A stretch of 64,000 nt of DNA from Eledone cirrhosa (Eukaryota). Positions 2,635-60,788 of this stretch are shown here, piece by piece (position 1 is the stretch's first letter; each line of letters starts with the position of its first letter). The notes beneath the pieces were generated by a model. It did not search any database. It was not told the DNA's origin and worked only from the letters and a program-made list of their open reading frames with translations. The DNA is taken from NCBI GenBank assembly GCA_964016885.1, contig OZ024749.1:22258001-22322000 (forward strand). Reading direction: 5' to 3'. Made by a program: the position numbers and the translations under genes.

Positions 2635-2637
<3 letters not shown>

Positions 2638-3200
2638 TGGCTGCCAACTCGTTTTCGAGTACGCCCACTACTTTATACCCATGTAGGAGAACCCCTACTG
2701 ATGCGCTGAACGAGTGTGACTTGTTAGGCTAGCCAGCGACATGAAAACTCTGGTACAAACACTACACTTGTGACAATTATTGACACATAGTGCTGGGCCC
2801 ATGGTACCATGTGACGACAAGTGCAGAGTGATCTCCAGATATAAAGCAATGCCTGTGCCGTGAAGCTTTTATAGTGAGCAAAGGCACTGCACAAAGCCAG
2901 TCTCACTCTCTTAACCAAGATGATATTTACCAAAAAGTAGAACAAGTCAACATCATTGGATACCATCAGGGTTGCAGGTGTTATATCAGAGTTTTCCTTT
3001 TCCTAGAATTCTGCCTTGATAAAGTCTAAGGGGTCATCTCTCCCGGTGATTTTGGATGGCCATTGACTCTTAAGAGCTCCTTTGCCCTTTGACAGGTTTT
3101 GTTTTTAGTCCTGCAGGATGTCCAAAGTCACCCTCCTCACCAAGAAACCTTGGTGGGGTTGCCAGTTTAGTCGCCAACGACCCGACCATGGGACAGGTTG
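2635..3200 (-). mobile_element. Non-autonomous RTE-derived element, copy 2
   Basis: Near-identical to 1713-2268. Confidence 0.65.
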
Positions 3201-3374
3201 TATATATATATATATATACATGCATACACACATACACACACATATGTTTGAATATTTATATATATAGATATAATTGTAGGGTTGCAGGTATATATATATA
3301 TATATACATATATACACACTCACACACACACGCGCGCGTACACACACACACCCACACACACACACACACACCCA

Positions 3375-3417
<43 letters not shown>

Positions 3418-3712
3418 CTATATATATATATATATACATACAAGGATGAACAAATCGACATAAAAACATCTCAGTTTTATTCTGTAAAGATCTCAAAGGA
3501 AGATTTGAAAAAAAACAACCCAGAAGACCCTATTCCAGAGTACACATATGAAATAATACTACAGAAACAATATCGATTACCTATTGTAATATATATGCCA
3601 AGGTACAAAAGTAATCAGAACATAAAAAAAATTACTTACATTACCTGTTACACTTGAACTATACCTATACAGCTGTTTCGAATCTCAGAGAAAAACATCA
3701 TCCATTAAATAC

Positions 3713-3750
<38 letters not shown>

Positions 3751-3917
3751 ATACTTTGGGAGGGTCATGTTGCCAATAAGAAACACACGCACCAGTTGCT
3801 TTCACTTCAATTTATTATATATTTATAAATTTATAAATCTACAAATCTACAAACTTATAAATTTCTGGTTGGTTGGTTGGTTCCACAACCAGATAGTTGT
3901 TTATATATAGTCATAGC

Positions 3918-4865
3918 TCTGGTTAGATACCATTAACAACCAAAAACAAATCCTCCATTCCCATTATGCCACCCCATGACTTCCAAACATCTGATCCACC
4001 GAAACTCGGCCATTTTGGACCATACCAAAATCAACATACTGATTGCGGATTTGGTACGGGTGATGAGAAATGTGTGCCGCATGTGCAACCCCGAAGAATT
4101 AGAGAGACACATACAACACTTCATCCACCGTATGCAGTTCTCTGGCTACAATCAGAGAGTAGAATCAGAGTGTATAGAGGAGCCAGAACCAAATGGGAAA
4201 AAATGGTAAATAATGACATAAATGGGACCTGCCCCTTGTATAGGAGCAAATTTTGGAATAGAATAGAAAGAACTAGGAACAAGGCCAATAGAATAAACTC
4301 ATGGTATGATAGCAATAAATACCAGAGTGTAATGTTCATCAATACAACCCCTAGAGGTGAATTAGCTTACAAATTTAGAAGGGCCCTAAATAAACATAAA
4401 CTCAAAATTAAGATAGTAGAAAGACCAGGTACCTCCGTAAAAACACTTATTAGCAAGACATACCCTTTTCAAAGACCCTCATGTATAGATAAGAAATGTA
4501 TAACCTGTAAAATAAGCCCCCATATTAACTGTAAAACTAGAAATGTAGTGTATAGCATAAGATGCACTGAAGGACAATGTAGAAACAAAAAGATAGTGTA
4601 CATAGGTGAGACAGCTCGTAGTATAGGGGAACGGATAAATGAACACTGGCGAGACCTTCAAGATGATAAAGAATCATCTGTACTCTACCAACATGCTAAG
4701 ATAGAACACAAGGGTAAATTAGAGAACATAGAAATAAAAATAGAATCCACACACAGAAAAGATGCAATGTTTAGGCAAATTACAGAGGCAGTAAGCATAA
4801 AAGAATTACAACCAAAATTAAATAGAAAATATGAGTGGAACAGCATCATCACAACTTACAATTAA
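3918..4865 (+). pseudogene. PLE RT C-terminus plus GIY-YIG endonuclease (frameshifted)
   Basis: MQFSGY, PLYR, CxxC linker, NVVYSIRC..YIGETARSIGERINEH, RQITEAV..PKLN. Confidence 0.9.
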
Positions 4866-5073
4866 GGACAAAATGAAAACACACACACACATAGAACAAA
4901 CAACCAACCAACAACATGTAAATAAATAAACAAATAGATAAATGAACACAAACACACAGAGACACCCGGATGTGGCGCATGCGCAAACTGAGCACACATC
5001 ACACACACAGAAACAAAATGGCGTAGGACAGAAGAAAGGAAAGGCACAGAAACAAACAAAGAAAGGAATCCCC

Positions 5074-5118
5074 AGTCACTGAAGAGGTCACAGAGTGTGT
5101 GACGAAAGGTCAATGACT
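5074..5118 (+). ncRNA. Type-I hammerhead of PLE family A (cleavage triplet altered)
   Basis: agtca-CTGAAGA-g-GTCACA gagtg TGTGAC-GAAA-ggtcaa-tgact. Confidence 0.7.
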
Positions 5119-5338
5119 ATATATAAACAACTATCTGATTGTGGAACCAACCAACCAACCAGAAATTTATAAGTTTGTAGATTTGTAGATTTATAAATTT
5201 ATAAATATATAATAAATTGAAGTGAAAGCATCTGGTGCGTGTGTTTCTTATTGGCAACATGACCCTCCCAAAGTATAACAAAATCGGTTTCAACACACGA
5301 TTTCAGATAAAGAATCTTGCTAAACAAATTCAGAAACG

Positions 5339-5469
<131 letters not shown>

Positions 5470-5603
5470 ATTAGAAAGTGAGCAACACAAAATATAACTA
5501 CTCCATTACCAAAGGTTTCTGGATCTCACACACTAACATTCCACCCTCACTTCCAATTTTTAACAGATTTTCAATCTCATTTCATATTTTTTATCCATAA
5601 CAT

Positions 5604-5671
5604 CTCTGTCTGACGACCGATCCAGACGTATATTAATATTGTCTGGGATCCAGAAACCTTTGGTAATGGAG
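5604..5671 (+). ncRNA. Type-I hammerhead in a pLTR remnant (5471-5770)
   Basis: ctctgt-CTGACGA-extended stem II (gatccagac..gtctgggatc)-GAA ACC ttt GGT A-atggag; 5471-5526 is an inverted partial copy. Confidence 0.8.
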
Positions 5672-5814
5672 TAGTTATATTTTGTGTTGTTCACTTTCTA
5701 ATCAAATAGCTCTGTTCTATACATAGAGAACTCTTTTTTCCTTTGCCTTTTCTTCGGAATTACCTAACACACAGACACACACAGACACACACTCACACAG
5801 ACACACACACACTT

Positions 5815-8837: not shown

Positions 8838-9965
8838 GAGAGAATTAGTACATCTACCAACATATGTGTACAGATGTACACTCATGCTAGCAAATATATA
8901 AGTTATGTCTTAGTACCTATGCGGTTCTATGCAGGTGAATGCAGAACAATTATATGAAAGACGTAAAATAAGAAGATTTTAAAAATTAAAAATTAACTTA
9001 CTAAAATTTTCACTCCAACTAATTAGTTTCTGTAATGGGATAAATATAGTTACATAATATATATAACTATAGAGAATTCATTACGGCATCATGGAGTCTA
9101 TTCTCAGCTAAGTTCCCAGGCAATGCGCGGACACTAGGAACCCATATAAAAATAATAATTCAGTAGATGGAAAGAAGCTAGCGAGGACTAAATTCCGGAG
9201 CACTGAAAAAATTCACTGCCTCTGGTCAGTGGCAGATTCTAAAGAATCAATCACGTGACACTGAGGTTAATCAGTTAGGAGCGGGTGGTATTATGACAAG
9301 AGCCTACTACTACCATGAAATAGCAGTAAATTTTGGCCAGTTTTGCTCAACAAATAATTTGGAGATAAATATAGAGAATTAGTACATCTACCAACATATG
9401 TGTACAGATGTACACTCATGCTAGCAAATATATAAGTTATGTCTTAGTACCTATGTGGTTCTATGCAGGTGAATGCAGAACAATTATATGAAAGACGTAA
9501 AATAAGAAAATTTAAAAAATTAAAATTTAACTTACTAAAATTTTCACACCAACTAATTAGTTTCTGTAATGGGATAAATATAGTTACATAATATATATAA
9601 CTTTGGAGAATTCATTACGTCATCAGGGAGTCTATTCTCAGCTAAGGTCCCAGGCAATGCGCGGACGCTAGGAACCTATATAAAAATAATAATTCAGTAG
9701 ATGGAAAGAAGCTAGCGTGGACTAAATTCCGGAGCACTGAAAACATTTCACTGCCTCTGGTCAGTGGCAGATTCTAAAGAATCAATTACGTGTCCGCGCA
9801 TTGCCTGGGAACTTAGCTGAGAATAGACTCCCTGATGACGTAATGAATTCTCTATAGCTATATATATTATGTAACTATATTTATCCCATTACAGAAACTA
9901 ATTAGTTGGAGTGAACATTTTAGTAAGTTAATTTTTAATTTTTAAAATTTTCTTATTTTACGTCT

Positions 9966-9966
<1 letters not shown>
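8838..9966. repeat. Retrozyme-like tandem array R1 (534-bp unit, about 1.8 units on minus plus an inverted segment)
   Basis: 8838-9370 repeats from 9371; inversion at about 9790; hammerheads at 9012-9097 (-, mutated core), 9546-9631 (-) and 9827-9912 (+). Confidence 0.85.
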
Positions 9967-15570: not shown

Positions 15571-16356
15571 ACGAAGGGAGTGTGGTACGGAACCAGATGG
15601 ACCATAACGCACCAGAGTACTCAATATTTAGGGTAGTAGAGTGGGTAATAGGAAAATGTTTAACCCCGACGGCAGAGCTCAAGCCGTTTCGACGGTTATT
15701 TCTGAACTAAATTAGAATTTTTAGCGTGTTAATAAATAGACGAACTTTTCAATGGGTAATTCCTTATATGGGAAGATTGTAGTTGTCAAAAAGATTGGTC
15801 AAAATTTCTTGTAAACACGATTAAGTTTTTCTTGGTGGTAGGTGGGAGGTGGGGGTGGCTGAACTTGCCTGTAGAACAATGAGGGGTTGGGTGGAACCGC
15901 TGAAGCGTTGAAAGTGAATTCTATACAGCAAATTCTAAGGAGCGTGTATGAAAGCAGGCGAAAAAGAATTCTGGGGGAATTTGAGAGTGGGACGTTATAA
16001 AGTTAAAAGGTTAATAAATTGAGATTAAAAGATAATAAATAAAAAAAAAAATAATCAATAAATTTAAATAGTAACAAATAATAAAAAATAAAAAATCTCT
16101 AGAGTCTAAAGCAGCCGCTATATTTTTAGCTGGTATTGCGTTATCGGGCAATGCTATATAGAATTTACTGGGGTGGGGGTACTGAGGCTACAGAAGCCCG
16201 ATGGGCTGCCTCGGGGTAGACGAAAGATGAAAAATGAAAAGAAAGGGGAGAGGGAGTGGAAGGTAGTGAAAAGAAGAGATAAAGGGAAAACGAAAATAAG
16301 TACATCTACCCATGTATGCTGGGGTTTCTCCTATCTTGTTATATATATATATAAAT

Positions 16357-17489
16357 TTTAGTAAGTAAGTTGATTTTTAATTTTTAAAATTTTCTTATTT
16401 TACGTCTTTCATATAATTGTTCTACATCCCCCTGCATAGAACCACAAAGGTACTAAGACATAACATATATATTTGCTAGCATAGGTGAACATCTGTACAC
16501 ATATGTTGGTAAATGCATTAATTATCTATATTTATCTCCAAATTATTTGTTGAGCAAAATTTGCCAGAATTTACTGCTGATTCATGGTAGTAGTAGGCTC
16601 TTGTCATAATACCACCCCGCTCCTAACTGATTAACTTCAGTGTCACGTGATTGATTCTTTAGAATCTGCCACTGACCAGAGGCAGTGAATTTTTTCAGTG
16701 CTCCGGAATTTAGTCCTCGCTAGCTTTATTCCCTCCACTGAATTATTATTATTTTTATATGGGTTCCTAGTGTCCGCGCATCGCCTGGGAACTTAGCTGA
16801 GAATAGACTCCCTGATGACGTAAGGAATTCTCTATAGTTATATTATGTAACTATATTTATCCCCTTACAGAAACTAATTAGTTGGAGTGAAATTTTTAGT
16901 AAGTAAGTTGATTTTTATTTTTTAAAATTTTCTTACTTTACGTCTTTCATATAATTGTTCTGCATCCCCCTGCATAGAACCACAAAGGTACTAAGACATA
17001 ACATATATATTTGCTAGCATAGGTGAACATCTGTACACATATGTTGGTAAATGTACTAATTCTCTATATTTATCTCCAAATTATTTGTTGAGCAAAACTT
17101 GCCAAAATTTACTGCTGATTCATGGTAGTAGTAGGCTCTTGTCATAATACCACCCCGCTCCTAACTGATTAACCTCAGTGCCACGTGATTGATTCTTTAG
17201 AATCTGCCACTGACCAGAGGCAGTGAATTTTTTCAGTGCTCCGGAATTTAGTCCTCGCTAGCTTTATTCCATCCACTGAATTATTATTATTATTTTTATA
17301 TGGGTTCCTAGTGTCCACGCATCGCCTGGGAACTTAGCTGAGAATAGACTCCCTGATGACGTAAGAAATTCTCTATAGTTATATTATGTAACTATATTTA
17401 TCCCCTTACAGAAACTAATTAGTTGGAGTGAAAATTTTAGTAAGTAAGTTGATTTTTAATTTTTAAAATTTTCTTATTTTACGTCTTTC
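16357..17489 (+). repeat. Retrozyme-like tandem array R1 (541-bp unit, about 2.1 units)
   Basis: Head-to-tail repeat; hammerheads actcc-CTGATGA..GAA ACTAATTAGT T-ggagt at 16807-16888 and 17348-17429. Confidence 0.9.
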
Positions 17490-17720
17490 AGGTTCACCCG
17501 GGAGAGCACTCGATGTTTAGGTTCACTTCTGTGATGAGGTGTAGAGCTATACAAAGTGTAATATATAGAAAGGATAAAAAGGACGATTGATTATTCCTTC
17601 ATTGCATTTATTGATAGGTGACGCGCGTTTCGCGACTGGTCAGCTCAAGATTCAATCTATATCGATCCTACCCGACTCAATAATCCGCAGCTCGACGGAC
17701 CCTCATAAAATGTTATAAGA
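17490..17720 (-). mobile_element. PLE pLTR remnant with mutated long-stem-II hammerhead (17617-17701)
   Basis: Homologous to 63140-63463; GAAACGCGCGTC half intact, left core reads CCGTCGA. Confidence 0.6.
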
Positions 17721-18826: not shown

Positions 18827-18829
<3 letters not shown>

Positions 18830-19236
18830 TGGCTGCCAACTCGTTTTCGAGTACGACCACTACTTTATATCCATGTAGGAGAACCCCTACCGATGCGCTG
18901 AACGAGTGTGACTTTTTAGTCCAGCCAGCGACTTGAAAACTCTGGTACAAACACTACACTTGTGACAACTATTGACACATAGTGTTGGGCCCATGGTACC
19001 ATGTGACGACAAGTGCGGAGAGATCTCCAGATATAAAGCAATGCCTGTGCCGTGAAGCTTTTATAGTGAGCAAAGGCACTGCACAAAGCCAGTCCCACTC
19101 TCTTAACCAAGATGATATTTACCAAAAAGAAGAACTAGTCAACATCATTGGATACCATCAGGGTTGCAGGTGTTATATCAGAGTTTTCCTTCTCCTAGAA
19201 TTCTGCCTTGACAAAGGCTAAGGGGTCATCTCTCCC

Positions 19237-24591: not shown

Positions 24592-27986
<3,395 letters not shown>

Positions 27987-29487: not shown

Positions 29488-29488
<1 letters not shown>

Positions 29489-32400
29489 CGGCGATGAATT
29501 AGTTTTGAGAGGGGTTTGATATGAAATCGTGTGTCTAAACAAATATTGTTATACTTGGGGAGGGTCATATTTGTGTAATATTGCCAGAATTAATAACAGA
29601 ACACACTAACTGTTTGGTTGGTTTTCGCTTTTCGCTTCTGTGTCTTTTATATCGGTAATCTAATTTATTCGGTCCTCAATGTTGCCATTGACTGACCAGC
29701 GGTCAAAAATAATACAGATACAATATAGACACAAACACATATATATAGTTTATCAAAGTTCTTTCCTTGCAAAGTTCTTTCCTGCAACATCGTCAGTGGT
29801 GCTATTGTTTCCTCCCGTTACATTGTATTTTCTACACCATCTTTATTTAGTCTGTTTATATATTTATTTATTAGTTTATTTTATTTTGTCTTCTTTGCGC
29901 ATGCGTTTGCGTGTGTGTATAGGTGTTTTGTTTGATGTGTGTTCGTGATTGGGTGACTGTGTATTGGTTAATGTATTCTATCTTTACTAGTGTGTGTTTA
30001 TATGTGTTTGTTGTTATTGTGCTTGTGTATGTATTTATTTATTTATTTATCTATTTATTTATTTATACTTCTCTTAGGTCAGTGTTGTTTGTTTGGGTGT
30101 TGTTGTTATTCCATTCATTCTTTCTGTTTAGCCTTGGCCTTCTAATTTCTATTTCACTGGCCTCTCTGATTTGCCTATCTGCTGGGTCATTTCTATGTTT
30201 AGATATTATTCTAATTTCTATGTTGTCTATGTTACCGTCGTGTTGTTGTCTGGCATGTTCGTAGAGTACTGACCCGTTTTTTCGTCCTTTTAGTTCCCCC
30301 CAGTGTTGGTCTATCCTTTCACCTATGCTACGAGCTGTCTCGCCTATGTATTTTGTTGTCATGTTTCTGCAAGTACCCTCTGTGCATCTTATGCTATAGA
30401 ATACGTTTCTAGTTTTACAGTTTATCCGGGGGTTCACCTTACATATGATACATTTCCTATTAGTACAATGGGTTTTCTTAAAAGGGTAGGTTTTGCTGAT
30501 CAGGGTTTTTATGGTGGTTCCTGGCTTTTCTACCACCTTAATCTTTAAGTGGGTCTTTCTCAGGTCTTTCTACACTGGTTAGCTAATTTCCCTCCAGGGG
30601 TAGCGTCCACAAACATGACACTCTGGTATCTCTGGTTGTCGTACCATGAGGTGGCTTTCCCTATCTTATGTCTAGCCCTATCTAAGCTATTCCATGATTT
30701 GCTCCTGTATAATGGGCAAATTCCTTTCATGTCCAGTTCTATGAGGGTCTTATACTTCTCCATGGCTCCTCCGTATACTCTGACTCTATCTCTTTGGTTG
30801 TAGCCAGAGAACTGCATGCGGTTGATGAAGTGTTGCATGTGTCTTTCCATTTCTGTTGGGTTGCACATACGTGACACATTCTTCATCCCTCGTACCAAAT
30901 CTGCGATCAGAATATTAAACTTAGCACTACTGGACATTGCTGAGTTTTGAGTATCAGGTATTTGGAGGCCATGGGTTTAGCATAGTGTGAGTGAAGAATT
31001 TGGGCTCTCTCGTCTATAGTGTTAATCCAGAGTTCCGTGTCTAATACAGGTAGTCTATTGTTAGGGTGTTTGGAAGGGTAGTCGATAGTTACAGTTATAC
31101 TCTGGTGTATGGAATTAGCTATCTGCTGGATGCTTTCCATTGTGCTACGTTCTAAATCAAACTTGTTAGTGCTCTCTAGTGGGGATGTTCTTATAACTAT
31201 ATTGATATCGTCTACGTAACGAGAGTACATGATGAGGTCTATGGAGCTTTCATTAAGGAGATCTTTAAGTCTCCTTTCCCACCATACCATGAAAAGGTTG
31301 GCAACATCACCTGCTATGTTGATACCAATGGCTGCTCCCTCATTTTGGGTGTAGATCTTCTTGTTGAACTTGAATATGTGGCCCTTTAGGGTAGTTTTGA
31401 TACTAGCCCCTATTGCATGTGGGACCATTTTTCTTACCTGATCATTGTTTTGGGGGGTCCGTATAGCTTTGGTCAACCCAATCCACCTTCCCATGGGAGT
31501 CTTTTTAGCCATTGAGGTTATGGTGGGGGGTCTACCTCTTATGGGTCTACTGGAGCAGAAACGTCTAAGGTCATGGCTGTCTAGGTAGTCAGTGTCGTAG
31601 GTAAGTCTAAGTAGGAGACCCAGTTCGTCTGTGTCGACGTCGCAGAACTCCACCTCACTCTCAATGATCATCTCCACACATTTTTCCACAGCAAAATCAA
31701 TGTTAATGGATGGCTACAATGATACCACATCCATGCTGCCTATTATGCAGTTGGATAGGTTCGTGTTTTTGTTGCACTCACTGATTCTGCTGAGGAGGTC
31801 CTCTGTACTGTCACATACATCTGGGGACATCTTGATTATGGGGCGTATAACCATTGAGAGGAAGTAGGAGATCCTGTAGTTGCTAGCTATATTTGCTCCG
31901 CATACGCGTCTTGTTGGTGGTCCTTTGTCGGGTCGTCGACTATCTTGTGGTCTTTGCGGAGCCTATACAAGTGTGGTATGCCATTGTTAGACGCCTGGAA
32001 GTGGTTGGCAGTGCGTCTGCTTGGCTTTAGGATGACGGTCCACATCATCATGTGAGGGTTGAGGATTTTCTCTCTCCCATCATGTGTTTGCTGTGCAATT
32101 TCGCTCGTGTTGCTGATGTGGGGTTGCATAGCCTTGATGTAGTTCGGCATGCTATCTATTGACATCCTACCAGACTTATCCGTGGGTAGACATACTACGT
32201 CACCATCCCTTGTGCGCTGCTTGAGGCTAATCAAGCCTTCTACAGGTTTCCTCTCAAGTTGTTGGGCCTCTGGTCTGCTCTGTCTCTTAGTATACCGGTC
32301 TACTATTTGTCTAATCTTATTTCTAGCTATGGTGAACTGTGCCTCTGTCTCGTCATCTATTTGTTGTGGTATGCAAACTCTTTTATTAAAGGGTAACCTC

Positions 32401-33359
32401 GTAGGATAGATATTACCCATCTTATATGTTTTGTCAGCTGGGTTGAAAAATAGTTTCTCTAAGGGGTTGTCATTATATCTATCGTCATAGTTGTGTGTGT
32501 TGCTATTATTGTTATTATGGTGGTTGTTGTTGTTCCTATCATTAGCATTATTATTATTGTTATGATTGCTAGATTTATTGTTGCTGTGTTTGTTAGATGT
32601 ATTGTTGTTATGATTGCTAGGTGTATTGTTGTTGTGATTGTTAGATGTATTGTTGTTATGATTGCTAGATGTATTATGCTGTGATTGTTAGATGTATTGT
32701 TGTTATATTGCTAGATGTATTGTTGCTGTGATTGTTGTTTACTTCACCGTTATTGTTGTTGTTACTGTTATTTCGACCATTGTGGTTGTTACTTGTATTA
32801 TGTTTCTTGTTTTTGTTGTGTCTATCATTAATGTTGCTACATGTATTATTTCCATTATTACCACTGTGGTTGTTGTTGTTGTTGTTGTTCATATTGTTAC
32901 CGTTATTGCTACTGTGGTCGCTGTTGCTGTGTCTGTAGTTAATGTTTCTATTATTATTATTATTGTGGTTGTTGTTGTTGTTCTGTCTATCGTTAGTATT
33001 ATTACCATTATTACTATTTCTCGCTCTCCTGCTATTGTTATTGTTATGGTTATTACTATTATAGTTGTTATTTCTATACTCAGAGTTATTATTTATATTA
33101 CTACTACCGTTATTATTGTTGTTGTTGTTGTTTACTTTTGCATTCCAACGTATTTGATAAACTATATATATGTGTTTGTGTCTATATTGTATCTGTATTA
33201 TTTTTGACCGTTGGTCAGTCAATGGAAACATTGAGGACCGAATAAATTAGATTAACGATATATAATACACAGAAGCGAAAAGCGAAAACCAACCAAACAG
33301 TTAGTGTGTTCTGTTATTAATTCTGGCAATATTACACAAATATGACCCTCCCCAAGTAT

Positions 33360-33365
<6 letters not shown>
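29488..33365 (-). mobile_element. Penelope-like element family B with inverted 5' pLTR
   Basis: 29546-29755 is inverted to 33155-33365; the tail encodes [15 protein letters not shown]; hammerhead (with an internal duplication) at 29751-29800. Confidence 0.92.
30063..33152 (-). pseudogene. PLE RT plus GIY-YIG polyprotein, frameshifted, with an Asn-rich insert
   Basis: LPTDKSGR, LRKDHK, GAAIG, YSRYVDDI, LPVLD, HYAKPMAS, MQFSGY, YIGETARS. Confidence 0.92.
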
Positions 33366-33444
<79 letters not shown>

Positions 33445-33446
<2 letters not shown>

Positions 33447-34965: not shown

Positions 34966-36012
34966 AATGGAATAGAATGAAACGAAATTTCATTTCTCAC
35001 ACTTAGTACGGCACTTACTTAAATGTATGTATGTATACGTACATACATATATGTATACAGACGTACAGTAGCATGTATATATATATACATACAGGCACAC
35101 ATACATATATGCACGTATCAGTTTACCGAACATTTATTATAATGCTCGGTTTGTTCGTTTGTAAACAAACAAACACCCTTAATTACGCCGTACAGTGTTT
35201 AGGCAACCACGTCACCTTTTTGTTCAACACTGACACAGGAACGATGTACTAGTTTCAAGCTTATTAGCTATCGTCAGCACCGTATACCTTTCTGCCAGAT
35301 GGTTGAACGTCCGAAAGAAGATACTTTCCTTATGAAAATTAACGGCTGAGCAGCCTAATTTGCATATCGAGTGAGTTCAGTCGGCCAGGCGCACCGAAAA
35401 CGATAAATGGAATAGAATGAAACGAAATTTCATTTCTCACTCTTAGTACGGCACTTACTTAAATGTAAGTATGTATGTATACGTACATACATATATGTAT
35501 ACAAACGTACAGTAGCATGTATATATATATATACATACAGGCATAACATACATATATGCACGTATCAGTTTACCGAACATTTATTATAATGCTCGGTTTG
35601 TTCGTTTGTAAACAAACAAACAGCCTGAATTACGCCGTACAGTGTTTAAGCAACCACGTCACCTTTTTGTTCAACACTGACACAGGAATGATGTACTAGT
35701 ATAATAAATGGCTGTTTGTTTGTTTACAAACGAACAAACCGAGCATTATAATAAATGTTCGGTAAACTGATACGTGCATATATTTATGTGTGCCTGTATG
35801 TATATATATACATGCTACTGTACGTCTGTATACATATATGTATGTACGTATACATACATACTTAGATTTAAGTAAGTGACGTCTAAGAGTGAGAAATGAA
35901 ATTTCGTTTCATTCTATTCCATTTATCGTTTTCGGTGCGCCTGGCCGACTGAACTCAATCGATATGCAAATTAGGCTGCTCAGCCGTTAATTTTCATAAG
36001 GAAAGTATATAC

Positions 36013-36016
<4 letters not shown>
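34966..36016. repeat. Diverged R2-subfamily array with inversion
   Basis: About 440-bp unit; hammerhead on - at 35241-35283 (acggtg-CTGACGA..GAAACTAGTA-catcgt); orientation switch at about 35700. Confidence 0.85.
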
Positions 36017-36523
<507 letters not shown>

Positions 36524-38087: not shown

Positions 38088-38153
<66 letters not shown>

Positions 38154-38220
38154 CAAGGTTAGCAAATAAGGAAAATGTTTCAAAATAAATTTTTAAAAAT
38201 TAACTTTACTTACTATGGTT

Positions 38221-38304
38221 ACCTTTACCGAATCGGTTTCGAATCTCAAAAATAAACGGAGACCATACGGCCTTCGTCGCAAAGAAAGATTCTCGTCAGA
38301 AGGT
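38221..38304 (-). ncRNA. Type-I hammerhead with ~40-nt loop II (pLTR family X, 38150-38713)
   Basis: acctt-CTGACGA-GAATCT..AGATTC-GAA ACCG att CGGT A-aaggt; the pLTR end is repeated at 38633-38713. Confidence 0.88.
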
Positions 38305-38711
38305 TCTTTTCATTCGAAGAATATAAAATTCTTGAATTTAAATTACGAACTAGCGCTACCCAAAACTGTTCCCGAGATGAGAGTAAATGAAGTGGAATCA
38401 ATTTTTTCAAGGGCCGAAAGTAAAGATAGAGGCAGAGGGAAGTAGGTCAATCGGCTACCACTATCACTGGCAGCAGTCAGAACGACCAACATTTTTCTCA
38501 ACATAGAGGAGTATAGTAATAATAGGATATGTGTTCCTACACGCACAAGGCGCTAAGGGACACATGTATTGTCCAACCATATGGCAATGTGGTTCAATGG
38601 CAGGTTAATAAATTAACGAGCCAGAACATATATAATCAAGGTTTAGCAAATAAGGAAAACGTTTCAAAATAAAATTTTAAAAATTAACTTTACTTACTAT
38701 GGTTACCTTTA

Positions 38712-41700
38712 CCTTCTTCAGATGGGTTAAGGATGAGGAGTGAAACCGTACACCGGATCTCCCTGCAACAAGTCTTAACACCCCGGCGGGCAGGCGCTGC
38801 AAAATAACACCCAGGAAACAATCCTTGCATACCAGACCCAGCATCAGACAAACAGATGCGACAAAAAAAAAAAAAAAAAACCACCTGCCAGAGTTACCTC
38901 CCTTGACCTGCTGCAAAATCAAAACAAACTATTTTTGCGAGCAATGAACCTTGATGTGGATTTAACCCCCAAAACTCTTTCCGAGCAATATAAGGAACAC
39001 TTTTGATTATTTATGCCCTTGAGAAGCCCAACTGGGCGAAACGTACGTAGGTGCTGTTTTAAATAAACATGTTTTAACGGTCTATTCTCCGATTTTTTAC
39101 TTTCCCACGTGCTTACGCTCTGCTAACTCTCTAGCCCACTAAATATTAACACTTCGAATATTTAATACTGCCGGCCTAGTATCGAGCGCCTAGTATCGAG
39201 CACCTTTGGCATACGCTACTTGGCAAATAACTATATGTATCACCTATGCTCCCCTTTTTTCTCTTTCTCGATACGTAAATACTGTATTACCGTGCTCCTT
39301 TTGTAGAGCATCTCACCTTATTTGCCATTATGTTGGAGAACCAGCCGTTACCCATGTCTGTCAAGTGTATCCCCTTACCCAGCAGAAAAACCTACCTTAA
39401 ACTGCTTATAGACGCTACTAATTCGTTTATACGGAGAGTCAGATGGAAGGCCTACCACCTGAATAAGAACACCCGTAACCTTCCTGAACCCAAAGAGAGG
39501 TATGGCTTCAAAACATACCGAAACCCACCGCACAACACCTTACTGGACTCCTTTGAAGAGGACCTGCTGAAAATGATCAAAAACGTTAAGTTCAGAAAGA
39601 AACACCAATGCAGCAATCCATTCTTAACGTCCCTTGATACACTAATAACTAAGATCAAGAATGACCCGCACCTCTTCGTCACCTCCGACAAACCAAAAAG
39701 CTGTACAAGATGGACGCGAGAAAGTATAAAAAATTCATCTATAAGGAACTACACAAAGACTACAAAAAGACACCCTCTAGTACCCTAAATGACATAAATA
39801 GAGTAGGGAAGGATATAGTCACCAGCTTAGAAATAGAAAAGTACACTAACCCGTACGTCCCTCTGACGCCTAAGTTCTCTCTTAAGGATCACAAATATGA
39901 CTTTAATGAAAGCCCCTCTATTAGACTAATATGCCCCTCAACATCAGATATAGGTAAGATTAGTAAAGTGATCCTCGACAGAGTACTACTGGAGCTTAAT
40001 AGAAAGGCTAAGGTCTGCCTCTGGGGCAACACCGACCAGGTCATAAATTGGTTCACCGAGTTGCCGGATAAAGCCACCTTGAAATTCATCCAGTTTGATA
40101 TAGATAGTTACTACGCCTCTATCTCCCCCATACTCTTAAATAAGGCACTTATCTTAGCTAGATCTAACACTAGCCTCACTAAAAAAGAAATAGACATAAT
40201 TCTAGCGGCGCGTAGAACCATTATCCAGTTCGAAGGCTCCCACTGGACCAGAACCAACCGTCCTGATAACTTCGATGACACGATGGGGTCCAGTGACTCA
40301 GCGCAAGTAACTCACCTGGTCGGGATATACCTCCTACATAAGCTTAGGGAAGAGATACAGACCCTACAAGGCGGTGTATATAGGGATGACGCCCTGTTTA
40401 CCGTTAGGAACCATAGTCCCCGTAGGATAGAGAACCTTAACAAACATATACACAGGTTCTTCAAGTCATACGGCCTATTCGTAACTATGGACCTCAACCA
40501 CAGGGTTGTCAACTTCCTGGACGTGACACTGGAGTTGAGTACAGGCTTATACAAGCCATACCATAAGCCTGGAGAGTGCCTCTCTTATATTAATTATGCC
40601 TCAAACCACCCTAAGCAGACTCTCAACTCTATAGTCTATAGTATCTCACATAGAATCTCGAGGCTATCCGCCAATGAGGATATCTTCAACCAAGCGACAG
40701 ATTACTACAATAGGGCCTTGATAAGCGCCGGATTTAACCGAGGAATTTCCTACAGCCCTAACGCTAGCTCTAGAAACCATCCCCTCATAAAACAAACGTT
40801 ATAGAAAGCCATACCTATAACCGATCACGCGGCGACCTCGTTGAAGTCGGATATAATAGAATAGATAACCGCACTAAAGATCACGACCCCGGCGACGGTG
40901 AACACTGTAGATTACTCGAACTATTCCCCTATTACAAAACCAACAAAGGCAACGGCCTACTACCAACGCCTTCAAACCAACATGTTCGTGTACATAAACA
41001 TGGAAGAGGTAAGAAGAGTGCACCCGAGCATAAAGTGAAAGGGGCACCGAACGGGCGACTGCGCATTAACACACATAAGAGCGGTCACCTAGATGGAACC
41101 ACCCGTAGCAAAAGTACAAGGACACGGAATCACCACCGTAACGTCCTATGGTCCCCCCCTACTCTCGGAGTGTGGCCTCCAACATACCCCGGATGTTCTT
41201 CGAAGCCTTAGAGAAGAACTTCCCGCCCAACCATAGGTATAGAAAAATTCTTAATAGGAATAATATAAAAATATCCTTCTCTACTACTCCTAACCTAGCA
41301 GACATCATAGGAACAACGAACCACAGTAAGATGACCAAGACACAGCACCTCGACACAGACGCACCTACACCTGACAATAACTATATCGGCCTTAACAACT
41401 CCCTGGCAGCATCCAATAGTGTTGACAACGGCATCCGCAGACGCAACCAGCATAACCGTGAAATGACTGGGGAACATGCAGGACATGACGTGCGGAATAA
41501 CAATCGCAGCACCCCGCGTGCTGTGGGTTGTAATTGTGCTAACGACCGCTGCGGTAGCGTAGGTAACAACGCAGGCAGCAACAATGATAGCCTTACCGTG
41601 GGAAATAGACGGAACCGCGACAGAAATTGCAACTGCCGCGACAGAGGACGCTGCCCCCTTAGAGGATACTGCTTGACTGATAGGGTTATATATAGATGCA

Positions 41701-42610
41701 CTATTACTAGCCACAATAGCGTTAAACATTATATAGGTGCTACGTCCGGCCCGTTCAAAATTAGGTTTCGAACACATCTCCACTCTTTCACAAATAGAAA
41801 ACTAAGGCACTCCACTTCGCTCGCGGACTACATCACATCACTAAAGGACTTAAACATCAGCTTCTCCACGCACTGGGAGATTGTCGATAGGGCTGCACCG
41901 TACAAATTCAAGAGGAAATGCGATCTTTGACTCATGGAGCTCTACCACATTATAACTGCACCCCACGAACTCATCAACAGCAGAGCTGAAACAGCGATAA
42001 GTTGTACACATCGCTTAAAAATATCCTTCTTCAGATGGGTTAAGGATGATGAGTGAAACCGTACACCGGATCTCCCTGCAACAATTCTTAACACGCAGGC
42101 GGGCAGGCGCTGCAAAATAACATCCAGGAAACAATCCTTGCATACCAGACCCAAGCTCAGACAAACAGATGCCGCAAAAAAAAAAAAAAAAAATTGTCCG
42201 GGAAAGACTGCCCTAAGAGCGGCCAGAGTTGTTTCCCTTGACCTGCTGCAAAATCAAAACAAGCTATTTTTGCGAGCAATGAACCTTGATGTGGATTTAA
42301 CCCCCAAAACTCTTTCCGAGCAATATAAGGAACACTTTTGATTATTTACGCCCTTGAGAAGCCCAAATGGGCGAAACGTACGTAGGTGCTGTTTTAAATA
42401 AACATGTTTTAACGGTCTATTCTCCGATTTTTTACTTTCCCAAGTGCTTGCGCTCTGCTAACTCTCTAGCCCACTAAATATTAACACTTCGAAAATTTAA
42501 TACTGCCGGCACTAGTATCGAGCACCTTTGGCATACGCTACTTGGCAAATAACTATATGTATCACCTATGCTCCCCTTTTTTTCTCTTTCTCGATACGTA
42601 AATACTGTAT
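38712..42610 (+). mobile_element. Full-length-architecture PLE family Y (partial tandem, ~575-bp direct repeats)
   Basis: 38712-39287 is repeated at 42026-42610; hammerhead variants at 39015-39054 and 42350-42389. Confidence 0.92.
39354..42056 (+). pseudogene. PLE RT plus GIY-YIG polyprotein, disrupted
   Basis: CIPLPS..FIRRVRWKA, LKDHK, IRLICP, FDIDSYYASI, MGS, YRDD, FLDV, PYHKP, CNCR..CPL..VIY..YIG..FKIRF..H, CDL*LME..LINSR..CTH. Confidence 0.92.
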
Positions 42611-42623
42611 ATTTATATATATA

Positions 42624-42925
<302 letters not shown>

Positions 42926-42938
42926 CTATATATATATA

Positions 42939-45900
42939 TCTGTTTGTTCATCGACCTGCGACGGCAATTGCGTGCGTTTGTTAAATGGTAAAGTCGTGGC
43001 GTGGACTCGTCGCAGGTCGAATGATTTATCGGAGGGATTATAAAACGCAGAGTTCCAGGCTGCTGCTTTATGTGTACTATTGCTATTGTTATTGTTAGTT
43101 GTGTTGTTTCTATTTCTATTTCCACCAACAGCCTCATGGTTGTTTCTATGTCTCTCATAATTACTCCTGTCTCTTTCCACTGGCTCATTGTTGTTATCTA
43201 CCCTATTTTGTGTGTCTGTGTGTTCGTCTTGGTTATTCTCTTTGTCCTTAGTCTCCCTTCTCCTTTTAATCCTATTAATTTCCCTTATTTCTGTGATTTC
43301 TGTGCTACTGTCATTACTTGTTTTCTGTGCCTGTGTGTTTGTTAAGATTGTGGTGGTGGTGAGAGACATTGAATGCGTGTGTGTTGGTGTTGTTGATGTG
43401 TGCTGTTGTTGATGTGTGTTGTTGTTGTCTCCGTGTGTGTTATTGTTGTTGTGTGTGTTTTTATTGTTGTTTGTGTCTGCGTGTCTGTTGTTGTTGTTTC
43501 TGGGTATGTTGTTATTGTTGTTGTTGTTGATGTGTGTGTTGTTATTGTTGTTTGTGTCTGTGTGTCTGTTGTTGTTGGGATGTGTGTTGTATATGTGTGC
43601 GTATATTGTTGCTTTTGTTTTTGTTTTTGTTTTTGAGGCTCCAGCGTAGTTTTGTAAATGATTTTTCTATTTCTGACAGACAACTAATCATATTTACCTT
43701 CTTGAATGTCGCAAATTTCGGGGGTAAACATAACACAGACATCTCATCGTTATCTATTCTTGCGTTACCATATATATTTGTGTTGTTGTTGTTGTTGAAC
43801 TCTTCTGTTAATGAGGTGTCGGTCATATTTATACCGTCAATTTTGTCGGGATATCTATTGGTATTCTCTATAGTATCCTGATTTAGCTTTATCTGCTTAA
43901 GCCACTTAAGTTTCTTGTTAAAGTGCTTATCACTTTCTTGAGTAATGTACTGTTCTTCAGGGCGTATAAGGCTTATAAATATTAGTTTCTCTCTTGGTGT
44001 GGTGATCCTAGCTATTCCTTGTATTAAAAATAGCACTAGTACACATAAAGCAACAGCCTGGAACTCTGCGTTTTATAATCCCTCCGATAAATCATTCGAC
44101 CTGCGACGCGTCCACGCCACGACTTTACCATTTAACAAACGCACGCAATTGCCGTCGCAGGTCGATGAACAAACAGAAGCACAATTTAGTATAGCTAGAT
44201 CCGAACTTAGAAATATTATAGAATAGTATAGCACGAAGCATAATAGAATGGAGGCCCAGCAACTGGGAGAAAAATCTGCAAATGGCTTGCGTAAGCTCAT
44301 GCAGCGCTCACGTAATGGAGAGATAGCATGCTTTCCAACAGACAAGTCTGGCAGAATGTCGGTTGACAGCCTGCCAAACTACATCCAGGCAATGCAACCC
44401 CATATCACTAACACAACAGAGGTAACACCACAGGAGCATGAGGATAGAGAAAAAGCCCTCAATGCCCATATGGTGATGTGGACGAATATAATGCAGCCCA
44501 ACAAAAGGACTGCCAACAACTTCCAGGCCTGGAACAATGACGTGCCGGCGTCGTATGGGCTTCGAAAAGACCATAAAACGGTCTGTGACCCTGTCGCGGG
44601 ACCACCAACACGGCCAGTCTATGGAGCTAACATTGCTAGTAACTACTGACTGTCCTACTTCGTCTCCCTGATCATACGTCCCATCATTGAAATGTCCCCA
44701 GATGTATGTGACAGCACGGAGGACCTCCTCAGCAGAATCGGCGTGAGTAACCGATCTGGGGACCTAACAAACTGCATAATAGGCAGTATGGATGTTGTGT
44801 CCCTGTATCCATCTATTGACGTGGATTTTGCTGTGGAGAAATGCGGAGAAATGATCAGTGAGAGCAAGGTTGAGTTCCGTGGGATTGATACCAGTGAGCT
44901 GGGACTCCTACTTAAGCTTACCTATAGTAATAGTTACCTAGACACATATGACATTAGCAACCTGTGCCCTACAAGACCAGCAAGAGGCAGACCGCCTACC
45001 ATTACCTCAATGGCCAAGAAAACCCACACAGATAGATGGAACGGGTGGACCAGAGCCATACGAACACCCGAAAACCACGATGAACTGAAGAAAATGATTG
45101 CACATGCGGTAGGGGCCAGCATAAAACTAAACCTTAAGGAACATATGTTCAAATTTAATGGAAAAACATATGCCCAAGAGGAAGGAGCAGCCATTGGTGT
45201 TAGCATTGCAAGCGACATAGCTAACTTATTCATGGTATGGTGGGACAGTAGACTTAAACTTAAACTTAAAGAACAATTAGAAGACCCCTTAACCCTGATA
45301 ATGTACTCCCGCTACGTTGTTCATATAAACATCGTAGTTAAGACACCCCCACTAGAGAACAGTCAGGAACTAGAGAAAAACACAATGGAAAGCATCCAGC
45401 AAATAGCAAACTCCATCCACCAGAGCATTAGAGTTACTATAGAATACCCAAGTAAACACCCCAACCATCGATTACCTGTACTAGACACAGAGCTCTGGTT
45501 AGATACCATTAACAACAAAAAAACAAATCCTCCATTCCCATTATGCCAAACCCATGACTTCCAAACATCTGATCCACCGAAACTCGGCCATTTCGGACCA
45601 TACCAAAATCAACATACTGATTACGGATTTGGTACGGGTGATGAGAAATGTGTCCCGCATGTGACACCCCGAAGAACTAGAGAGACACATACAACACTTC
45701 ATCCACAGTATGCAGTTCTCTGGCTACAATCAGAGAGATAAAATCAGAGTGTATAGAGGAGCCAGAACCAAATGGGAAAAAATGGTAAATAATGAAATAA
45801 ATGGGACCTGCCCCTTGTATAGGAGCAAATTTTGTAATAGAATAGAAAGAACTAGGAACAAGGCCAATAGAATAAACTCATGGTATGATAGCAATAAATA

Positions 45901-46851
45901 CCAGTGTGTGATGTTCATCGATACAACCCCTAGAGGTGAATTAGCTTACAAATTTAGAAGGGCCCTAAATAAACATGAACTCAATATTAAGATAGTAGAA
46001 AGAACAGGTAGCTCCGTAAAAACACTTATTACCAAGACATACCCTTTTCAAAGACCCTCATGTATAGATAAGAAATGTATAACCTGTAAAATAAGCCCCC
46101 ATATTAACTGTAAAACTAGAAATGTAGTGTATAGCATAAGCTGCACTGAAGGACAATATAGAGACAAAAAGATAGTGTACATAGGTGAGACAGCTCGTAG
46201 TGTAGGGGAACGGATAAATGAACACTGGCGAGACCTTCAAGATAATAAAGAATCATCTGTACTCTACCAACATGCTAAGATAGAACACAACATGCTAAGA
46301 TAGAACACAAGGGTAAATTAGAGAACATAGAAATAAAAATAGAATCTACACACAGAAAAGACGCAATGTTTAGACAAATTACTGAGGCAATAAACATAAA
46401 AGAATTACAACCAAAATTAAATAGAAAATATGAGTGGAACAGCAACATGACAACTTACAATTAAGGACAAAATTAAAACACACACACACATAGAACAAAC
46501 AACCAACCAGTAACATGTAAATAAACAAATAAATAAATGAACATAAACACACACAGACACCCGGATGTGGCGCATGCGCAGACTGAGCACACAACACACA
46601 CACAGAAACAAAATGGCGTAGGATAGAACAAAGGAGAGGCACAGAAACAAAGAAAGGAATCCCCAGTCACTGAAGAGGTCACAGAGTGTGTGACGAAAGA
46701 ACTATGACTATATATAAACAATTATCTGGTTGTGAAACCAACCAACCAGAAATTTATAAATTTATAAATTTATAAATATATAATAAATTGAAGTGAAAGC
46801 AACTGGTGCGTGTGTTTCTTATTGGCAACATGACCCTCTCAAAGTATAACA

Positions 46852-46853
<2 letters not shown>
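42939..46853 (+). mobile_element. PLE family A, long copy with 5' inversion
   Basis: 42939-44035 is the inverted N-terminal region (CLPPKFA..EIEKSFTKLRW, Thr/Asn-rich); 42939-43079 duplicates 44037-44177; pLTR with hammerhead at 46665-46709. Confidence 0.92.
44036..46464 (+). pseudogene. PLE RT plus GIY-YIG, disrupted
   Basis: FPTDKSGR, YGLRKDHK, MDVVSLYPSI, GAAIG, YSRYVVHI (catalytic DD lost), YIGETARS. Confidence 0.92.
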
Positions 46854-47161: not shown

Positions 47162-47168
<7 letters not shown>

Positions 47169-49840
47169 AAGTTAAATAAAAGTCAAATGATTAAAATTTA
47201 GCTTCGTTTATTACTGCTATATATATTTCAGTGACAGCCATCTTTGGCTGTGACCTCTTCAGGCAGTTTGAATTAGTATGGTATAGACAAGTACATATGT
47301 TGTTTAGGTGTATGATATTGTCAATACTCTGATATGCCCAGTTCCTTGTTGGGTTGTTAATTCACTGGGGAACTGGATACACTCAGGCGTGATGCTAACT
47401 ACCCCAGGACGGACAACCCCAACCGCAGGACACGTGGGGGGGGGGGGGGGGGGGAGGAAACGGGCGACCACCCCACGATGGATCTCCCGGGGCAGACAAC
47501 AACCACCCCACAAATCCGGGCCGTGAAGATAACAGAAAGTATAGAGCCCAAAAGGGAAGCAACAGTGCGGAAACCACCAGCAAACCAACAAATCTCCAAC
47601 AAATCACGAAGCCCCCAACCCACACATATAGGAGGAGACACCGACAAATCACGTGGTACAACCCACCCTACTCAGCGGCCCTAAAGAAAAGCTTGGCCCG
47701 ATTGTTCTTTGGAGCACTTGACAAATGCTTCCCGAGGGACCACAGATACCACAGGATCTTCAACAGACACACTGTGAAGCTTTCGTATTCCACCACGAGA
47801 AATTTGGCCCAACACATAGCTAGCATCAACAGAAGTAGGCTTAAAAACCACACACAACCAGAAGATGGCAATACAAACACTCAGCAGAACCATGTGAAAG
47901 GAGGGAAGGGGGGACCCAGAGCCCACCCAAGAAACACAAACAGACCCAAGGACCCCCCACCGAGCATGGGGGAAGACCAACATGTAACACATAATGAGAA
48001 TCCTAATCTAAGCACGCAGAGGCCGCCCACCCTCTGCAACTGTAGAAACCCCGAATCATGCCCCCTTGCTAATGAATGTCTCAAGAAGAACATAGTGTAC
48101 GGTTGTAGGGTTAAAACCCCCAACTCCGAACACCTCTACATAGGAGCCACATCAACGAGCTTTAAGGACCGCTGGTACAACCATCGCCATTCATTCAAGA
48201 AGGAGGCCAAAAGGAAAAGCACAGCTCTCTCCGACCTGATCTGGAAGCTTAAGCTGGACAGGACCCCATACTCTCTGGCCTGGTACATAATCAGGAAAGT
48301 ACCACCCGATAAAAGGGGATCTTGCATATGCAAACTATGCCTGAACGAGACCCTTGAGATACTAAGAGTTGGAAGCGGCCTGATAAACCTCAGAACCGAC
48401 TTCTTCGGGACATGCAGACACCTTAGAGCCGGGACCTTTCTCAAAATATATGGACAGTAGCAACACAAGAAGATGTGAACTCCCCTCAAGCTATAGGGAC
48501 TTCTACAGAACATGAAAACACCTCTCGGCCAGACCTCCCTCAAGCTATATGGACAATTACAACACCCTAGGTTGTGAACTCCCCTCAAGCCATAGGGAAC
48601 AACCCAGGCGGAGCAGACACCATGATAGCCTAGAGACAGAATCGGACACAGCCATAATAATCTGGCCAACATCTATAACACAAACACTTTTAATTTACCA
48701 GATTTCTGACTTTAAAGTTCCAATCTTAAATCTTGATTTCTCTATATTAATTTGTTATTTGTTTTCTGCCCTCTTCACTGTATAACCTTATATTTATATT
48801 TATTTTAAGTTGAGATAGATTATAACACAAACACATTGAATATCTCATCTTAACATCTTGTATCATACCAATCTATCCAACATATTCTGACCTTGAGATT
48901 GGTTATAGCACACACACACACACACTTTATCCTACATTATTTCTCACTTCTCCATATACATTATCATTACTTTTTCACCAATCTCTCATTTACTCTTTAT
49001 TCTTTATTCTCTATTTATTTATTTATTTTCAAATTACACAAATTATATTAATTATTTTATTTTATTATATTATTTATTTATCTTCTGTTTTCTTCATTTA
49101 TTGCCTTATATTTCTTCATATACATGAAATAACCCCCCCCCCCGCCACCACCACTACGGTGGTGGCGGGTGGGATGAAGAGAAAACACAAACTGAATACT
49201 TCTAAATTGTTAGCAGCAGCTGACCACTACAACAACAACAGTACCAAAATAATGGTGGAAGTCAAATGTACTGAACAATAGCAGGCATAAACACTACAGG
49301 GAGCCTCACCCCAGAAAGAATTCTATAGACTTCTGACTGAGGAATGCTCTCAGAACTGAACAATGGGAAGTTTGACACATTTTTTGATATTTTGTTCCTT
49401 CAACACATTGTCCCTTCTACCATTTTATCAATTTTTAAGCTAACTCCAACAATGACAACACTAATAACTGACCAATGAGAGGAGAAGGGGACCTGTGACA
49501 CTAAAATTCGTTTGTTTGAATTCATATGACTCCAGTTCCCCAGTGAATTAACAACCCAACAAGGAACTGGGCATATCAGAGTATTGACAATATCATACAC
49601 CTAAACAACATATGTACTTGTCTATACCATACTAATTCAAACTGCCTGAAGAGGTCACAGCCAAAGATGGCTGTCACTGAAATATATATAGCAGTAATAA
49701 ACGAAGCTAAATTTTAATCATTTGACTTTTATTTAACTTTATTTTACACTACTCCGGAGTAACCAAACCAACCTGCGCACTTCGTCGAGTGCTCCAGCCT
49801 GCATACTGAGGTGTTGGTATACAACCAACATAAACTCAAT
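47162..49840 (+). mobile_element. 5'-truncated PLE family Z with inverted 5' pLTR
   Basis: 47162-47379 is inverted to 49528-49746; hammerheads at 47213-47267 (-) and 49641-49695 (+); about 1.3-kb 3'UTR. Confidence 0.9.
47693..48460 (+). pseudogene. GIY-YIG endonuclease domain of PLE family Z
   Basis: IFNRHTVKLSYS, CNCR..CPL..C..NIVY..YIG..FKDRWYNH..STALS..IW..CKLCLNE..LIN..CRH. Confidence 0.9.
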
Positions 49841-50685: not shown

Positions 50686-52078
<1,393 letters not shown>

Positions 52079-60560: not shown

Positions 60561-60788
60561 TGCGACACAGGCATTGCTTTATATATGGGGATCTCTCTGC
60601 ACTTGTCATAACAGGGTACAATGGGCCCAGCAATATGTGTCAATAATTGTCACAAGTGTAGTGTTTGTACCAGAGTTTTCAAGTCGCTGGCTGGACTAAA
60701 AAGTCACATTCGTTCAGCGCATCAGTAGGAATTCTCCTACATGGATATAAAGTAGTGGCCGTACTCGAAAACGAGTTGGCAGCCACCA
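60561..60788 (+). mobile_element. 3' part of the RTE-derived non-autonomous element
   Basis: Reverse complement of 1713-1938, followed by (TATG)n. Confidence 0.65.

Follow-up and report, generated by a model that had tools for sequence, protein, structure and literature searches.

Do the inner ends of the inverted pLTR copies that accompany Penelope-like elements (PLEs) record the place where a hammerhead ribozyme cut the template RNA in vivo? The question was raised by an inverted arm in Eledone cirrhosa DNA, for which the initial annotation had proposed that RT starts internally on the 5' pLTR and runs off the 5' end of a ribozyme-cut RNA, leaving a genomic footprint of cleavage. It bears on a role of the hammerhead in PLEs that has been called unclear (PMC8557442). 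All counts given here refer to one 64-kb window, that is, the whole stretch of DNA analysed. End positions carry a negative sign when they lie past the scissile bond and a positive sign when they lie short of it.

The window is microsatellite-rich animal DNA dense with PLEs and with hammerhead-bearing tandem repeats. The RT of the family B copy B1 matched Pfam RVT_1 with an E-value of 0.00058, below the curated cut-off, the GIY-YIG endonuclease (EN) gave E 0.00027 and 21.6 bits against a cut-off of 22.6, and an RT fragment of the family A copy A2 had no match in Pfam. The RT motifs GAAIG and YSRYVDD align with 14 homologues; RT and EN lie in one chain in full-length homologues, and the ORFs in the window are broken by frameshifts. 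The RT-EN linker reads CIDKKCITC and CTNRKCIIC, the CX2-5CxxC pattern of Neptune, and the (TA)n flanks point to microsatellite targeting; such a linker between RT and EN and microsatellite targets have been described as features of the Neptune clade (PMC8557442). Families A and B also show a pLTR with a hammerhead, an inverted 5' copy, and a one-sided tail. Judged from their sequences, they are EN+ Penelope-like elements, Neptune-like by linker and target. The named relatives of the family A RT are Octopus vulgaris predicted proteins and one Holothuria protein. Long asparagine-rich inserts occur in the N-terminal ORF region of both families (31887-33150 in B, 42926-43700 in A), and similar inserts have been described in Adineta Penelopes (PMC3846280).

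The focal element, A1, and its sister copy A2 consist of the following parts:

3747..3914, minus strand: A1 inverted arm, a pLTR copy reaching from outer start site 1 (+167) to a point 1-3 nt beyond the predicted hammerhead cut
3915..5340, plus strand: A1 body, a 5'-truncated Neptune-like PLE with an RT thumb remnant, CxxxxCxxC linker, GIY-YIG, 3' pLTR, and tail
5071..5118, plus strand: A1 3' pLTR hammerhead, whose triplet CAA does not conform to NUH; the body cDNA passes through it
5281..5340, plus strand: A1 tail, an interval of about 60 nt that separates outer start site 1 from site 2 and that, with the preceding bases, encodes the ORF start MTLPKYNKIGF...
44027..46852, plus strand: A2 body, family A, terminating at start site 1
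46662..46709, plus strand: A2 minimal type I hammerhead, intact-looking and read through, predicted cut 46704|46705 (CUA|U)
42940..44026, minus strand: A2 inverted arm, an ORF-internal piece with neither end at the pLTR landmarks; a counter-example

The A1 arm is the reverse complement of the element's own 3' pLTR (5114-5280), with 2 differences in 167 nt. Its outer end adjoins (TA)n and its inner end is joined to the 5'-truncated body, which itself runs to 5340, about 60 nt past the start point of the arm. The inverted piece of family A had been said to stop within 3 nt of the CUA|UGACU site, and the A1 arm does end 1-3 nt past the cut, a figure measured against the A2 version (CUA), the A1 3' pLTR itself reading CAA|ugacu, which is not a cleavable NUH. 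The join corresponds to position 45488 in A2 coordinates and is the sole 7/9 match, among 2263 A2 body positions, to the 9-mer spanning the cut (+2 to -7). This unique match suggests a homology-guided join by a cDNA that was already across the scissile bond. The argument needs an A2-type donor; a donor with the CAA version could not have been cut. In the A1 3' hammerhead (5109-5118), the four bases preceding the cut form the reverse complement of those four that follow; the resulting small hairpin, which destroys the NUH triplet, is possibly a template-switch scar. The inversion centre of A2 (44025-44045) is a short palindrome, and its arm and body overlap by 152 nt.

Family B is represented by two inverted insertions:

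33153..33364, plus strand: B1 inverted arm, inner end at -2..+1 relative to the predicted cut; the only case compatible with exact run-off
29488..33152, minus strand: B1 body, almost of full length and including the 3' pLTR and the tail; its hammerhead has a weak helix I and a duplication in helix II
50688..50834, minus strand: B2 inverted arm carrying the tail, stopping at +57, short of the hammerhead; a counter-example
50829..51975, plus strand: B2 body, terminating at start site 1

The statement that the inverted piece of this family starts right after the predicted cut agrees with the B1 inner end, which is compatible with the exact cut because its two upstream-matching bases can come from the reading frame of the body. 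Helix I is absent from the predicted fold of both family B copies, which have only 2 consecutive pairs there, and this hammerhead is best called atypical because a 2-bp helix I has been described for D. virilis (PMC4209133). The B2 arm has an internal deletion between tail and pLTR (50688-50721).

As the initial annotation held, the outer ends lie at a fixed point inside the ORF start: the boundary aagtataa(caa)|(TA)n is found at 3747, 33364, 46852, 50422, and 51975. Inverted arms are 97.6-100% identical to their own pLTR and the fixed start sites adjoin (TA)n, most inversions having one start site at one end and a second, farther site at the other. These fixed outer ends support the proposal that RT starts internally on the pLTR, as has been shown biochemically for PAc, the Poseidon element of Anolis carolinensis (PMC11167929). 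At the head-to-head joins there are 1-6 shared bases or a short insert. The spacing between start sites is about 60 nt in A (5281-5340), 57 in B (29488-29544), 95 in Z (49745-49839), 95 in T (35923-36015), 120 in W (8839-8958), and 165 in Y (36247-36375), longer than the 30-40 bp tail of published PLEs.

Several other families in the window carry predicted hammerheads or related motifs:

38152..38713, minus strand: family X, a 483-nt unit with a hammerhead (cut 38226|38225) and a direct 79-nt repeat stopping 2-4 nt past the next cut
38712..42609, plus strand: family Y PLE, carrying two pLTRs as well as a hammerhead-like motif of the U3-A8 type, head to head with X through 2 shared bases
34966..35700, minus strand: family T (called R2 in the initial annotation), 1.6 tandem units with one hammerhead read through, ending 7 nt past the next cut and followed by about 9 bases without assignment
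35710..36015, plus strand: opposite arm of the 34966-35700 T insertion, inner end at +68
24967..27892, unstranded: second T inversion, about 3 units each way, inner ends at -235 and -147; a counter-example
16353..17490, plus strand: family W tandem, whose 5' end lies 7-8 nt short of the predicted cut, beside (TA)n; absent from the initial annotation
8839..9966, unstranded: family W inversion, inner ends at -242 and -118; a counter-example
47164..47377, minus strand: family Z inverted arm, identical to its own pLTR, passing the hammerhead to -160; a counter-example
36061..36375, unstranded: family Y mini-inversion, with the arm beyond the hammerhead-like motif to -127 and the partner stopping at +94; a counter-example
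5470..5753, unstranded: family V hairpin insertion, whose arm stops about 21 nt past the cut, in helix II

To these is added a hairpin of family S at 63 kb, with inner ends at about -37 and -81. Two further ends had been placed near a cut before. The T piece at 35700 does end 7 nt past it (-7), and the X piece at 38713 does stop at -2 to -4, but the latter is not an inverted arm, 38635-38713 being a direct repeat of 38152-38229. A reading of X as the inverted arm of Y was ruled out, X and Y sharing no meaningful DNA similarity (best match 18 nt, E 0.076). At 38700-38725 the unrelated X and Y are joined head to head through the 2 shared bases, with (TA)n at the outer ends only; this join may come from a single insertion for which two different RNAs served as templates, as would be in keeping with a PLE protein that acts as a dimer. 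Given a short ATATATA at about 38630-38636, the X portion could also be taken for two pieces of separate origin. Families T, X, and W consist of tandem units of about 445-540 nt that are non-coding and carry one type I hammerhead apiece; tblastn of 38 PLE-type proteins against 11 units gave no match. The U3-A8 motif of family Y, with a palindromic helix III, occurs at 39011-39055, 42346-42390, and 36115-36160; its predicted minimum-energy fold differs from the hammerhead fold, and a U3-A8 core with palindromic helix III has been described for Schistosoma PLEs (PMC4209133). A copy of W stands tail to tail with a copy of the hairpin family S at 17480-17500, with no (TA)n between them. For the two S copies a common end at the 5' boundary of the core was considered and could not be fixed, since the copy at 17.6 kb extends farther upstream.

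In the pattern scan, CUGANGA/GAAA/NUH cores were found in A2, X, T, Z, W, V, and others, and the folds predicted for A2, X, Z, and W contain helices I and II; the A1 3' pLTR departs from the minimal type I pattern by its CAA triplet and family B by its helix I. These motifs share with the minimal type I hammerheads described in PLEs (Cervera and De la Pena 2014, PMC4209133) the CUGANGA/GAAA/NUH core, a helix II that is long and a helix I that is short, a helix III that is tiny or palindromic, and the U3-A8 variant, the hammerheads here being predicted from sequence alone. Among the curated covariance models, T scored 16 bits (E 0.096) with Rfam Hammerhead_HH9, whose gathering threshold is 52, A2 and X had no Rfam hammerhead match, and a search of the whole window gave no hammerhead among the 150 listed of 282 matches, mostly microsatellite matches. 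Fold z-scores, computed for eight motifs, had modest values (-0.8 to -2.6), and no argument is based on them. Intact-looking predicted hammerheads were repeatedly read through (A2, X, Z, W, and T), so a rule that only dead hammerheads are read through was rejected, being true for A1 only. Such repeated read-through is in line with the poor cleavage of minimal PLE hammerheads in vitro, whose description also states that there is no in vivo evidence (PMC4209133), and with the PAc data (PMC11167929).

Do the inner ends nevertheless cluster at the cut? We listed by hand the outer and inner ends of 31 pieces of the hammerhead-bearing families in the 64-kb window, leaving out families without a recognised hammerhead, and used real or projected cuts and a null in which lengths were drawn from the smoothed length distribution; the landmark and the tolerance were chosen after seeing the data. 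Five of the 31 inner ends (A1, B1, X, T, and W at 16353) lie within 8 nt of the cut, against 0.82-0.91 expected (p 0.001-0.002), and two within 2 nt (p 0.02-0.03). The five belong, counting A1, to five different families, and the inner ends of V, V2, and the S copies, which are approximate, are not among them. Leaving out the focal A1 arm, 4/30 remain (p ~0.01), and leaving out the four ends named in the initial annotation, 1/27 (p ~0.5). In a separate version of the census with 30 pieces, A1 included, four ends fall at -8..-1 (expected 0.35-0.38) and one at 0..+8 (expected 0.41-0.44), and when the landmark was shifted the true cut gave the highest value of 24 offsets (4), the next being 2, at three offsets. 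An excess anywhere in the fold (8/30, expected 3.0) was discarded as a separate signal, being driven by the five near-cut ends; deeper in the fold the count is 3/30 against 2.2. Among the 11 same-family inversions (A1, A2, B1, B2, Y, two of T, Z, W, V, and the 63-kb hairpin), three have an end within 7 nt of the cut (A1, B1, and T at 35700). That the coincidence is not universal was already recognised for Z and W, and the exceptions also include A2, B2 (+57), Y (-127), V (-21), the second T (-235/-147), and the 63-kb hairpin (about -37/-81). The clustering of ends at the cut is probably real, on few cases and with a post hoc landmark, and the link of arm ends to the cut is a new regularity, plausible but thin, in an anatomy that is itself of a known kind.

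What the ends say about cleavage is another matter. RT running off a ribozyme-cut 5' end predicts ends at 0 or slightly short of it, followed by random bases, but three of the four named ends carry templated upstream bases: the upstream pLTR bases that the joined partner could not have supplied amount to 1 nt in A1, 2 nt in X, and 7 nt in T. Only B1 fits the exact cut, in a family with a weak helix I. In vivo cleavage is thus not established by these ends, and the focal A1 junction argues against it. The best explanation, which we hold tentatively as having somewhat less than an even chance of being right, is that of two-ended priming with RT stopping inside the folded hammerhead. The insertions would be ordinary ones of EN+ PLEs and PLE-dependent tandems by two-ended target priming, in which the protein would nick both strands of the (TA)n target and one cDNA per nick would start from the fixed sites inside the ORF start, as is known for PAc and as the outer ends suggest here. 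The two cDNAs would then be joined head to head through the short homologies seen in the sequence. The hammerhead core and helix III, 1-7 nt past the scissile bond, would be one favoured cDNA stop, where RT may stall or be released on the folded ribozyme, its backbone either continuous or cut but held together. If so, the footprint would record ribozyme folding, not cleavage. Against this stand the small, hand-curated, one-window sample with its post hoc landmark and its 1/27 without the named ends, the lack of excess deeper in the fold (3/30, expected 2.2), where helix II should block more strongly, and the B1 and W ends, of which the first fits exact run-off and the second, at +7, a trimmed cut end. 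Moreover, the homology at A1 uses an A2-type pLTR, and A1's own 3' pLTR differs at those bases.

The original reading, in which RT runs off the hammerhead-cut 5' end and the bases past the bond are untemplated additions, slippage, or a short jump onto the held 5' product, seems to us unlikely, if worth serious consideration. B1 lies at the cut within the limits of its microhomology, in an insertion that resembles a twin-primed near-full-length RNA, A1 needs one untemplated T only and X two bases, and the A1 arm stops at the cut while the hammerhead that was read through in its 3' pLTR is dead (CAA); there is also a precedent in R2, whose 5' junctions track the cut of an HDV-like ribozyme and carry untemplated bases (PMC3774820). 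The seven exact upstream bases at T are hard to reconcile with it, as are the 7/9 homology across the bond at A1, found at 1 of 2263 positions, the weak helix I of family B, the 8/11 same-family inversions that end elsewhere, and a PAc element that has no need for cleavage (PMC11167929). More generally, we consider it doubtful that PLE hammerheads cut in vivo and that a minority of insertions record it, the top-strand cDNA reaching the 5'-OH end and sometimes passing a few bases over the nick onto the bound 5' product, with the two cDNAs possibly coming from two RNAs as in the X/Y chimera. If it were true, inverted-arm ends would offer a genome-scale readout of ribozyme activity per family. 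Chance combined with selection, that is, ordinary 5' truncations fixed by microhomology with the hammerhead picked among many landmarks and windows, would account for the single hit among 27 once the named ends are dropped, for the control landmarks that reach 2 hits at 3/24 offsets, and for an arm in a metagenome locus (see below) that passes its hammerhead-like motif altogether; it is at odds with the persistence of 4/30 without the focal case, with the spread over five families counting A1, and with the true landmark being the top of the 24 offsets, and we regard it as rather improbable. Far less credible is that the ends mark a transcription start coinciding with the hammerhead, or that the arm is what remains of an older copy on the opposite strand into which the body inserted. 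PLE promoters do lie in the pLTR (PMC2377424), families A and B have a TATA-like run after the cut, and PAc can nick its own pLTR (PMC11167929); yet the joins are upstream of the TA run, and the D. virilis start lies 46 bp upstream of a 75-bp intron that abuts helix I, far from the cut (PMC2377424, PMC4209133). For the older copy, the part of the pLTR upstream of the cut matches known 3' pLTRs only, and insertion of A1 or B1 into such a copy was ruled out, no older-copy sequence remaining beyond either.

Much of the anatomy has counterparts in known systems, and an inverted arm, a fixed internal start, and a one-sided tail are already published PLE features. EN+ PLEs have been described with a 5'-truncated body, an adjacent inverted pLTR of variable length, a tail at one end, a microhomology or palindrome join, and a microsatellite target (Arkhipova et al. 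2013, PMC3846280; Craig et al. 2021, PMC8557442), and self-priming was proposed for the inverted pLTR (Arkhipova et al. 2013, PMC3846280); the accessible parts of these descriptions do not tie its inner end to the hammerhead (PMC3846280, PMC8557442). In PAc, RT starts at two internal sites, both target strands are nicked and extended, and the protein is a predicted dimer (Frangieh et al. 2024, PMC11167929). The insertions in the window share with PAc two fixed starts inside the ORF start, the one-sided tail, the AT-rich target, and a hammerhead upstream of the start sites; they differ in being Neptune-like and in having start sites about 50-165 nt apart versus 30-40 bp (PMC11167929). PAc mutants that are dead for cleavage still insert as usual, and none of the RNA-seq reads had its start or end at the cut (PMC11167929), so that cleavage is dispensable in vitro, and the main text of that study reports no genomic ends at the cut (PMC11167929). 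R2 offers the same concept, in that its genomic 5' junctions preserve the trace of ribozyme cleavage and show microhomology and untemplated bases (Eickbush et al. 2013, PMC3774820). R2 cleavage has been shown and removes all upstream sequence (PMC3774820), whereas in the window several ends keep upstream bases and most lie elsewhere. The twin priming of LINE-1 similarly involves two opposed cDNAs, one primed from either strand of the target, whose join may show a gap or an overlap like the 152 nt of A2, but starts from the poly(A) tail and a chance internal site (PMC12016303), whereas the starts here are mostly fixed in the pLTR and ORF start. Finally, T, X, and W resemble the non-LTR retrozymes of animals (Cervera and de la Pena 2020, PMC7229834; bioRxiv 10.64898/2026.07.22.740005) in being tandem arrays of non-coding units, every unit having its type I hammerhead, and differ in their unit length (about 445-540 nt versus about 300 bp typically) and in their PLE-type inverted insertions.

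A protein-led scan of metagenome contigs gave 12 related loci, and the corresponding scans for further copies found none in viral contigs and none in prokaryote genome contigs. One of the 12 loci (L010) has an inverted repeat together with a hammerhead-like motif; it is old (82%) and its arm passes the motif by about 160 nt. A 3.4-kb metagenome contig (L002) has identical ends (1-123 and 3319-3441), a family-A-like RT, and a clean hammerhead at 3237, and is either a collapsed tandem PLE or a circle. Family A DNA matched 19 listed sequencing runs in 14 studies, 3 of them with at least half of the words, and no RNA run is among the matches listed; parts of the family (44180-46850) occur in runs labelled with 15 different organisms, a lead on family spread only. 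Within the listings and passages covered, a literature search retrieved no report linking inverted-arm ends to the hammerhead cut. What the window provides is a lead together with a sharper prediction, and it does not answer the question: a map of arm ends at base resolution would be a cheap genomic test, with cleavage giving a peak at 0 and random extra bases and folding a peak at -1..-8 and templated bases. The finding keeps some value because it defines this cheap, decisive genome-wide test of the role of the hammerhead in PLEs.

The window contains further repeats. Other families lie in (TA)n and show no hammerhead by the pattern scan, with copies at 1714-2266, 2636-3187, 18828-19236, and 60563-60787, at 33445-34470, and at 1002-1185, 15571-15712, and 42735-42929, the last of these families having a long internal hairpin. 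The region 53156-56386 holds what we take, from its motifs, to be the remnant of an APE-type non-LTR element, and another RT-like remnant lies on the minus strand at 19970-22042.
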